Origin: Pristiophorus japonicus | Taxonomy: Eukaryota | NCBI RefSeq assembly: GCF_044704955.1 | Contig: NC_091984.1 | Coordinates: 54,126,001 to 54,190,000, forward strand | Reading direction: 5' to 3' | Length of the DNA: 64,000 bases | Part shown: positions 31,503-33,673 of the stretch, in pieces | Layout of the letters: each line of letters starts with the position of its first letter | Numbering within the stretch: position 1 is the stretch's first letter | The notes under the pieces: model-generated | Database searches by the model: none | Seen by the model: the letters and a program-made list of their open reading frames with translations, nothing else | What the model was told of the DNA's origin: nothing | Made by a program: the position numbers and the translations under genes

Positions 31503-32339
31503 GATCTCTTATACCAATGTCCCCTAATCTGGCCACTGGAAGGTATGTGAGATGACTTGGATGAGTGGACTGAGTGAAATGTATCCAAATTTGTTGATAA
31601 TACAAAGTTAGGTGGGAATGCAAGCTGTGAGGAGGATGCAAAGAGGCTGCAAAGGGATATAGACAGGTTAAGTGAGTGGGAAAGAACATGGCAGATGGAA
31701 TATAGGGCTCAAGTTTCAGCCTGAGTTGCTCCTATTTTTTTGGAGCAACTAGTTTAGAATGGAGCATCTTAGAAATTGCAATTCTCGGCATTTAGTTTGC
31801 TCCAGTTCTAGTGAGTTAGAATAGTTCCATTTTAGACAGATTTTTTTTTTTCAAAAGGGGACGTGTCCAGCCACTTGCGCCTGTTTTGCAAGTATAGACA
31901 GCGAAAACCTACTCCAAACTAACTTAGAATGGAGTAAGTGTATATTTTTGTACGCTCAGAAAAACCTTGTCTACACTTAGAAATCAGGCGTAGGGAACAA
32001 GAGATGTGTGGGGAGGGAAGTTTACAAACATTAAACACTTCACTTTTACAAATAAAGAGCCATCATCAATAATAAATGATAAATAAATCAATAAATCAAC
32101 CAATAAATCAAAAAAAAAATCAATAAATAAAAAATTAAGTTTCTACTCACCGACTGCAGCACTGGGAGCCCTCCAACAGCGTGCTGGGACGCCCGCCCCC
32201 CCAGTGTCTCTCTGTCTCTCTCTCTCTCTCTGTCAGTATCTCTCTCTCTCTCTCCCTCTGTCTCTGTCAGTGTCTCTCTGTGTTTCTGACAGCGAGGGGT
32301 GAGGGGAGAGGGAGAGGGAGTGGGGGAGAGGGGGTGGGG

Positions 32340-32697
32340 GAGAGCCGGAACGGGACCCGAAGGACGTGGGGCGTGGTGGGGGAGCTAGAGCGGGACCTGA
32401 ATGGGAGGGAGGGATGGATCCGGAGCGGGACCTAAACGGGAGGGAGGCAGGGGCAGGGGAGCCGGAGTGGGAGGTGGTGGGGGGTGAGCCGGAGCGGGAC
32501 CTGAACGGGAGGGAGGGGGGGCGGAGAGCCAGAGCGGAACTTGAACGGGAGGTGTGGGGGGGAACCGGAGCGGGCCTGAACGGGATGGGGGGGGGGGGGG
32601 TCGGGGAGCCGGAGCGGAACCTGAACGGGATGGGGGGGCGGGGAGCCGGAGCGGGACCTGAACAGGAGGAAGGGAAGGGAACGGAACGGGAGCTGAA
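32340..32697. repeat. G-rich minisatellite (ggagccggagcgggacctgaacggga) inside the transposon
   Basis: About 10 degenerate units separated by G runs. A related array lies at about 35925-36115. Confidence 0.85.
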
Positions 32698-32723
32698 GTT
32701 GAGATTTTTCTTATCCCATTCCT

Positions 32724-33035
32724 TCAACCACCGAACCTATACAGAGTTCGTTCTTGGCGCTTCAGGGCATAAACCACATCCATGGCAGTGACCGTCTTGC
32801 GTTTGGCATGTTCGGTGTAGGTAACAGAGTCCCTGATGATGTTCTCCAAGAAAACCTTCAGGAATCCGCGAGTTTCCTCGTAGATGAGTCCCGAGATGCG
32901 TTTCACACCTCCTCGACGAGCCAGGTGACGGATGGCGGATTTGGTAATCCCCTGAATATTGTCTCGGAGAACTTTACGGTGACGCTTCGCACCACCTTTA
33001 CCCAGACCTTTGCCACCTTTACCTCCCCCAGACAT
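32724..33035 (-). CDS. H4: Histone H4-like intact ORF (103 aa; transposon cargo, probably non-functional)
   Basis: [29 protein letters not shown]...[12 protein letters not shown]. Eight substitutions vs canonical H4 (R3G,P32S,R36H,V57F,V65I,A69S,G94E,G99R). No 3' histone stem-loop. Confidence 0.9.
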
Positions 33036-33673
33036 ATTCAAAGTAGGAACCGGAATTCGCTGTGAAGCTGAACAGGAGGGAGGCCCGAGTCCGATCTTCG
33101 CCGCCCCGGGGAGCCCATTCGGCCAGGGCTAGGGGCGGCGTGCTTCGGGCCCCTTCCATGCAGCCTCGGGGGCCTGGAGCTACTGCACATGTGCGCACAC
33201 TCTAGCGCGCATGTGCAGATATCCCGGCACTGTTTTCAGTGCCGGGACGTGGCTCCGCCCCCATCCCCTTATGCTGCGCCATGCCGAGCACGAAGACGTC
33301 CTGAGGAGACCGGGGAATCACAAGGTAAGTTTTAGGTGCCCTTTTTCTTCCAGAAAGTCGGTGCACCTTATCGAGATGCGCCATTTTTCCACTTGGGCCC
33401 ATAATGTGGAGAAGTGTGAAGTTATGGACTTTGGTAGGAAAAATAGAAAAGCAGAATATTTTTTAAATGATGAGAGATTGGGAAATGTTGTTATTCAGAG
33501 GGACCTGGGTGTCCTTGTACACGAATCAGTCAAAGTTAACATACAGGTACAGCAAGCAATTAGGAAGGCAAATGGTATGTTAGCCTTTGTTACAAAACAA
33601 TTGGAGTACAGGAGTAAAGAAGTCTTACGACAATTATACAGGGCTTTGGTGAGACCACACCTGGAGTACTGTG

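Follow-up and report, generated by a model that had tools for sequence, protein, structure and literature searches.

Histone sequence carried by a cut-and-paste transposon has been described in Pseudocercospora fijiensis and related fungi, where a histone H3 transcript or retrocopy is present in a hAT element with hundreds of copies (Dhillon et al., 2019, PMC6710886); on the available text of that report, this is the closest known case to the one presented below. In vesper bats, Helitrons have spread four nested retrogenes, according to the accessible part of Thomas et al. (2014, PMC4224331). Multicopy elements that carry host genes between terminal inverted repeats (TIRs), the so-called Pack-TIRs, are rare in animals: the main text of a survey on 100 reference genomes gives four multicopy cases, in frog (hAT) and alligator (Tan et al., 2021, PMC8277862), and the words Harbinger, PIF, and shark are absent from that main text. 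Tailless retropseudogenes are tied to L1 and, in the available text of Noll et al. (2015, PMC5322556), are recorded in therian mammals and the anole only; 51 human tailless histone retropseudogenes exist, which are 5'-truncated. As regards the carrier, zebrafish Harbinger3_DR is described in the available portions of PMC3016246 and PMC4482050 as a PIF/Harbinger element with a palindromic target preference.

In the literature searched, outside which repeat libraries and supplements lie, no vertebrate Harbinger or histone example of this kind was found, and an unpublished repeat-library entry for the family described here is possible. In plants, the Pack-TYPE elements reportedly include Pack-PIF. 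The initial annotation of the present locus, which was not aware of the phenomenon being described in a vertebrate, agrees with the literature searched as far as Harbingers and histones are concerned, but was too broad in view of the frog and alligator Pack-TIRs (PMC8277862) and the bat Helitron retrogenes (PMC4224331), as the available texts describe them.

The stretch analyzed here (the window, 64,000 nucleotides, C8:54126001-54190000 of the 5.9-Gb Pristiophorus japonicus assembly) holds a real, well-supported vertebrate case of a gene-spreading route with precedents in fungi and bats, in which the family is small and the cargo appears inert. The features of the element in question, locus L001, are as follows.

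31702..31704, plus strand: left 3-bp target-site duplication ATA, matching the empty paralogous LINE site
31705..33400, plus strand: non-autonomous PIF/Harbinger element with H4 retrocopy (L001), 1,696 bp
31705..31718, plus strand: left TIR, from the sequence and other copies
31705..32034, plus strand: left arm, resembling the transposase-side ends of autonomous elements
32197..32693, plus strand: CT microsatellite and GC-rich tandem units, which cargo-free elements have too
32694..32702, minus strand: 3' copy of the inner 9-bp duplication flanking the retrocopy, with one mismatch in L001; it overlaps the mRNA end by 3 nt
32700..33063, minus strand: H4 retrocopy, 364 nt (28-nt 5' UTR, coding sequence, and 24 nt of 3' UTR); its end lies 7 nt short of the stem in the parent
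32724..33035, minus strand: open H4 ORF, 103 aa, with 8 substitutions relative to canonical H4 and 6 relative to the parent
33063..33071, minus strand: 5' copy of the inner 9-bp duplication flanking the retrocopy
33072..33390, plus strand: GC-rich right arm, upstream of H4 in the H4 sense direction; its position matches the Myb-gene end of autonomous elements
33391..33400, minus strand: right TIR, 10 bp remaining after an 11-bp private deletion, from comparison with other copies
33401..33403, plus strand: right 3-bp target-site duplication ATA, from the sequence

The insert with inverted termini and an ATA duplication recorded by the initial annotation does interrupt a LINE, which we take to be a CR1 rather than an L2. 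An inverted copy of this host LINE in the window pairs with both the left flank (31241-31391) and the right flank (31201-31243); it is the empty paralogous site of the insertion, and since the two pairings overlap by exactly 3 bp, the length of the target duplication is fixed. The termini of L001 read GGGCTCAAGT on the left and GGGCCCAAGT on the right, the one being the near-complement of the other. The TIR of the family is about 13-14 bp long (GGGCYCAAGTTTC), as against 10 bp at the right end of L001, just inside which 11 bp are gone in this copy only. Exact matches to the terminal 10-mer are found six times in the window, as the ends of three elements, while the same 10-mer with one mismatch allowed occurs at chance level (10 seen vs. 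9.7 expected in the window). The insert was also correctly said to be devoid of transposase: no transposase-sized ORF was found inside 31705-33400.

The number of H4-bearing copies was assessed in several ways. A DNA search with the H4 and both its junctions gave, among the best 40 of 2,329 candidates, eight loci spanning both junctions (L001-L007 and L009) and the partial locus L012, the further matches being stand-alone relatives and then ordinary cluster genes. A 27-nt pattern for the 3' junction, with at most two mismatches, occurred at exactly the same nine loci (the reversed-pattern control gave none), and a pattern for the 5' junction matched at seven of the nine, L003 having a 3-nt insertion at this point and L012 being truncated. 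The 14 matches to a pattern consisting of the stop codon and the 3' UTR correspond to the nine element copies, the parent gene, two stand-alone copies, and both occurrences of a duplicated, degraded copy; this pattern missed the stand-alone copy L011 and yielded no tenth element copy. Since the junction, DNA, and 3' UTR searches agree, nine is a firm lower bound, and this assembly probably contains few if any more. The H4-between-TIR arrangement first seen at a single locus is thus present at nine, spread over seven contigs and with distinct 3-bp duplications.

Perfect 3-bp duplications were found at three of the eight non-composite H4 loci (ATA/ATA, TAT/TAT, and CTA/CTA), and duplications with one mismatch at four others (TAT/GAT twice, ATT/TTT, and AAT/AAA); the eighth locus, L007, reads CTA/CTA only when one extra terminal G is allowed. 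The triplets agree at 17 of the 24 positions (permutation p = 0.004), a count which scores L007 as zero and leaves out the composite L012. The site without cargo occurs, with at most one mismatch, at 13 places, which all belong to cargo-free members of the family and fall within the same right arm. Five of the eight empty elements with both ends visible carry a perfect 3-bp duplication; the other three match at one position in three, and two of these have divergent right ends, while two of the eight share flanks. The cargo-free elements L049 and L051, which lie on different contigs, have identical flanks and were therefore copied together with their surroundings. At L004, an absent left end was considered and rejected, because this end was found beyond a nested LTR-retrotransposon-like insertion of roughly 5-6 kb (L083 and L124; C3, about 149.555-149.560 Mb). 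The ends of this insertion are about 90% alike, and since it lies inside L004 it is younger than the L004 copy.

Two further elements are present in the window.

24982..26966, plus strand: related element sharing the TIR, with a TAG duplication and 612 N inside; its readable part is free of H4
35157..37479, plus strand: second, composite family element (L012) with a different right arm; 36118-36338 corresponds to the 3' part of the H4 retrocopy found in L001

The statement that there is no other histone gene in the window was therefore wrong. In L012, the H4-bearing left part is followed, from about 36340 on, by another left arm that starts at its position 68. L012 is the sister of L001 in the tree (87/81), and this position, at a distance of 3.4 kb, suggests a local hop followed by a deletion or a template switch.

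That the nine loci arose by segmental duplication or by gene conversion between pre-existing elements, and not by transposition of a loaded element, has a probability close to negligible. The flanks are unrelated from the junction outward, having in common only offset matches to common repeats; the target duplications differ between loci; and the right arms of the loaded copies group apart from the empty ones (76/82). The composite structure of L012, its proximity to L001, and the two derived changes common to these two copies do speak in favor of such a process, and may reflect a local rearrangement of this pair.

Transposition of the loaded element is in line with the features of the carrier family, which is non-autonomous, multicopy, and of the PIF/Harbinger type, as initially proposed. 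The 28-nt left end of the family has 896 exact matches in the genome. A GGGCYCAAGTTTC profile of about 13 bp was obtained over 74 ends, which were picked by the TIR motif itself; in the outer flank of these ends, the three duplicated bases are A/T-rich and the next position is a pyrimidine in 68 of 74, a pattern reminiscent of the palindromic target of Harbinger3_DR as given in the available part of PMC3016246. The 3-bp duplication, the short G-rich TIRs, the DDE and Myb/SANT partner, and the palindromic target preference are all shared with the PIF/Harbinger elements, in so far as these are covered by the available text of PMC3016246 and PMC4482050, whereas the target duplications found here are loosely WWW (TAT, ATT, and AAT being the commonest) and not strictly TWA or CWG. 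A TWA duplication, along with the transposase clade, is the mark that separates PIF/Harbinger sensu stricto from the Pangu/Nuwa groups.

Autonomous elements with the same TIRs, to which the initial annotation had pointed as possible partners, were found: the TIR pair, spaced 4.6-5.1 kb apart, bounds six of 16 transposase loci extended to 10 kb. One of them, L090, is 5,058 bp long with a TAT/TAT duplication, and encodes an open 408-aa DDE frame (PF13359, E 5e-40) and, on the opposite strand, a convergent Myb/SANT exon (PF13873, E 2e-10). The left arm of the family shows 83-85% identity to the transposase-side end of L090 and 85-88% to the ends that adjoin the transposase loci L060 and L077, and the right arm has only about 100 bp in common with autonomous elements, at about 70%; at these levels of identity, the exact partner subfamily was not found. 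The Harbinger expansion in this genome is very large, with 89,387 PF13359 candidates genome-wide and many open transposase frames of about 400 aa among the 150 that were scored.

The best match to the cargo outside the elements is a single H4 gene on C19 (L008:1527-1838, minus strand), to which the element copies show 91-94% identity, as compared with about 84% to cluster H4 genes. The main-cluster genes (C2056 and C9) were rejected as a source, given this lower identity, their different UTRs, and their position in a separate clade; L103 and L109, which matched the 3' UTR, were likewise rejected as a second source gene, as they are one degraded stand-alone copy present twice. A TATA-like box and the Rfam Histone3 stem-loop are both present at L008, which differs from a cluster H4 gene by 45 synonymous substitutions and encodes canonical H4 except at two residues (I66 and S70, counting Met). 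Exactly the same protein is recorded from the sharks Chiloscyllium and Scyliorhinus, which indicates that the gene is conserved; no paper on this shark H4 variant was found in the literature searched. There is no TIR match in about 29 kb around L008. A search with the parent's own sequence gave one full-length match among the best 40 of 503 candidates, and no sister of L008 was seen there. The common state of the element copies differs from today's parent at 14 codons, and since all these differences are synonymous, what came into the element still coded for the protein of the parent, and its amplification followed shortly after entry. Fourteen synonymous codons are more than would be expected from a drift of 4%, so the true source may be an allele of L008 or a lost sister gene.

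The ends of the cargo have the shape of a transcript. It begins 32 bp past the parent's TATA-like box, stops short of the stem, and comes without the parent's promoter, and the derived copies retrieved among the best 40 of 503 candidates in the search with the parent sequence all end inside these limits. The Rfam Histone3 stem-loop present at L008 is absent at L001, L002, and L011. The inner 9-bp duplication is element sequence that is single in the unfilled elements, and nothing is deleted at the insertion point relative to the unfilled site. Four stand-alone copies located outside any Harbinger (L010, L011, L013, and L103) end at most 3 nt from the 3' end of the cargo, and three of them show flanking duplications of their own, of roughly 8-12 bp. 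In all, five independent insertions end within 3 nt of each other, before the stem-loop, with flanking duplications in four of the five cases.

These data bear on whether the H4 was taken up as chromosomal DNA, in the manner of the Pack-MULEs invoked by the initial annotation, or as mRNA. In the former case, it would have been copied by template switching during the repair of an excision gap, and the 1-3 nt of microhomology at both H4 junctions is consistent with this mechanism, to which multicopy Pack-TIRs with distant parents are ascribed in the available text of PMC8277862. Since H4 is intronless, an RNA intermediate cannot be proved in the usual way, and introns cannot be used against DNA capture. 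The transcript-shaped ends, the inner duplication with nothing deleted, and the stand-alone copies with the same 3' end all argue against it; capture at the DNA level is largely refuted by the inner duplication and the common 3' end, and we regard it as very unlikely. Like the animal Pack-TIRs as described in that text, the present family consists of non-autonomous TIR elements with host sequence (from a parent gene, L008, that is not flanked by the element) in multiple copies with distinct duplications; it differs from them in that capture is ascribed there to DNA gap filling or template switching (PMC8277862), while retroposition of an mRNA is the most likely origin of the H4 cargo.

The reading that we favor, with a probability of about 0.87, is that a promoterless variant H4 was likely written once from mRNA by a LINE into a non-autonomous Harbinger, and that related autonomous Harbingers then likely supplied the enzymes that carried the loaded element to nine or more loci. 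Transcripts of the variant H4 gene on C19 would have arisen in the germ line; a match of 2-3 nt immediately 5' of the stem-loop would have served a LINE reverse transcriptase for priming, and the resulting tailless cDNA would have been inserted into one element with duplication of 9 bp. Since the element's termini are untouched by the cargo, we propose that a DDE transposase and a Myb/SANT protein from autonomous Harbingers mobilized the loaded element in trans, presumably in one short burst, producing 3-bp A/T-rich duplications. The parent, the unfilled element, the inner duplication, nine copies, and the partner family all occur in one assembly, and the record of this two-step gene duplication is unusually complete for a vertebrate.

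Several of these features are known from other systems. The likely retroposition of an mRNA into a DNA transposon with a duplication of its own, the existence of empty exemplars, and the subsequent spreading by the transposon in a vertebrate have their parallel in the bat Helitrons, as presented in the available text of PMC4224331; the bat carrier is, however, of the rolling-circle type and its retrogenes are poly(A)-tailed and 5'-truncated, whereas the shark carrier is a cut-and-paste TIR element and its cargo is tailless with a complete coding sequence. The absence of a poly(A), the fixed 3' end, the short complementarity to the target, and the flanking duplication are those of tailless retropseudogenes as characterized in the available text of PMC5322556. 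The five insertions, which all stop at a single spot immediately 5' of the histone stem-loop, extend tailless retroposition to a shark; they differ from the cases covered by that text in the genome concerned and in their near-complete 5' ends, and the target sites do not follow the L1-type TT/AAAA-type consensus quoted there.

The H4 sequences of the nine elements form a single group in the tree, with star-like branches of 0.04-0.05 and a support of 91/90, which lies below the 95/80 mark. Private changes, counted against the commonest letter in each column, amount to 85 non-synonymous (7 of them to stop) and 29 synonymous, giving a pN/pS of 1.03 across the copies (binomial p = 0.92 against neutrality), or 0.94 without CpG sites. 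The frame is open in three of the nine copies (L001, L004, and L005), four others have indels or are truncated, and two more have stops; in a neutral simulation with substitutions alone, 46-72% of frames stay open. The element-borne H4 is a passenger pseudogene, each copy of which has drifted by about 4-5% without purifying selection. None of the hallmarks of a functional replication-dependent H4 gene (promoter, 3' stem-loop, purifying selection) was found in the cargo, and given its neutral evolution its biological effect is probably nil. The L001 protein differs from canonical H4 (chain 1eqz_D) at 8 of 103 residues, of which two come from the parent gene and six are private. The description of the H4 as intact holds for the open 103-aa histone H4 ORF, but not in view of the substitutions, the lack of promoter and stem-loop, and the neutral evolution. 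Similarly, the proposed Pack-type family dispersing orphan H4 copies was right as to the dispersal to multiple loci, but the dispersed copies are promoterless, neutral pseudogenes.

There is a very slim chance that the GC-rich right arm drives expression of the loaded elements, giving a variant H4 protein or a regulatory RNA, and that the family is kept for this function. Four sets of contigs (one DNA-like, three of unknown type) matched in short pieces only, none of which covers the whole stretch, and no sequencing run recorded as RNA was listed as containing it; these results weigh neither for nor against expression. The H4 does lie in sense downstream of the arm that precedes the Myb gene in autonomous elements, some of the frames are open, and the L001-encoded protein has a UniRef entry, which shows only that the protein was predicted; yet pN/pS is 0.85 even in the three open copies, the proportion of open frames expected under neutral substitution exceeds that observed, and the stem-loop is missing. 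It is, likewise, highly unlikely that the right arm acts as a promoter from which L001, L004, and L005 make H4 with 6-10 changes in otherwise invariant residues; if they did, a DNA transposon would be a source of new histone variants in the germ line of a vertebrate. What these copies do affect is annotation: being predicted as "histone H4" proteins, they inflate histone gene counts.

The fate of the cargo again recalls the fungal H3-hAT, where, in the available text of PMC6710886, a histone transcript or retrocopy in a cut-and-paste TIR transposon was amplified and inactivated while the parent gene remained intact. That system involves a fungus, a hAT, and an H3 killed by RIP, in contrast to the vertebrate, the non-autonomous Harbinger, and the H4 in nine copies subject to ordinary drift found here; in the shark element, unlike the fungal one as described there, the unfilled site and the inner duplication are still visible.

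The genomic surroundings of the parent and of one stand-alone copy call for two further observations. About 2.4 kb downstream of L008, on C19, there is a divergent 231-aa linker-histone-like ORF (L084:1690-2385, minus strand; PF00538, E 4e-6), whose last codons are overlapped by a stem-loop-like sequence. The variant H4 and this ORF form a two-gene island, no other core histone motif being present in about 29 kb; the two may be a pair of histones of the germ line, and this would account for the repeated retrocopies. In the degraded stand-alone H4 copy on C1 (L103 and L125, about 18.304-18.314 Mb; duplicate L109 on C3997), the stretch that codes for the N-terminal GKGGKG has given rise by expansion to a tandem array, with units of about 20 bp, extending over more than 10 kb, with 397 motif matches in L125: this array is a satellite born from a histone tail.
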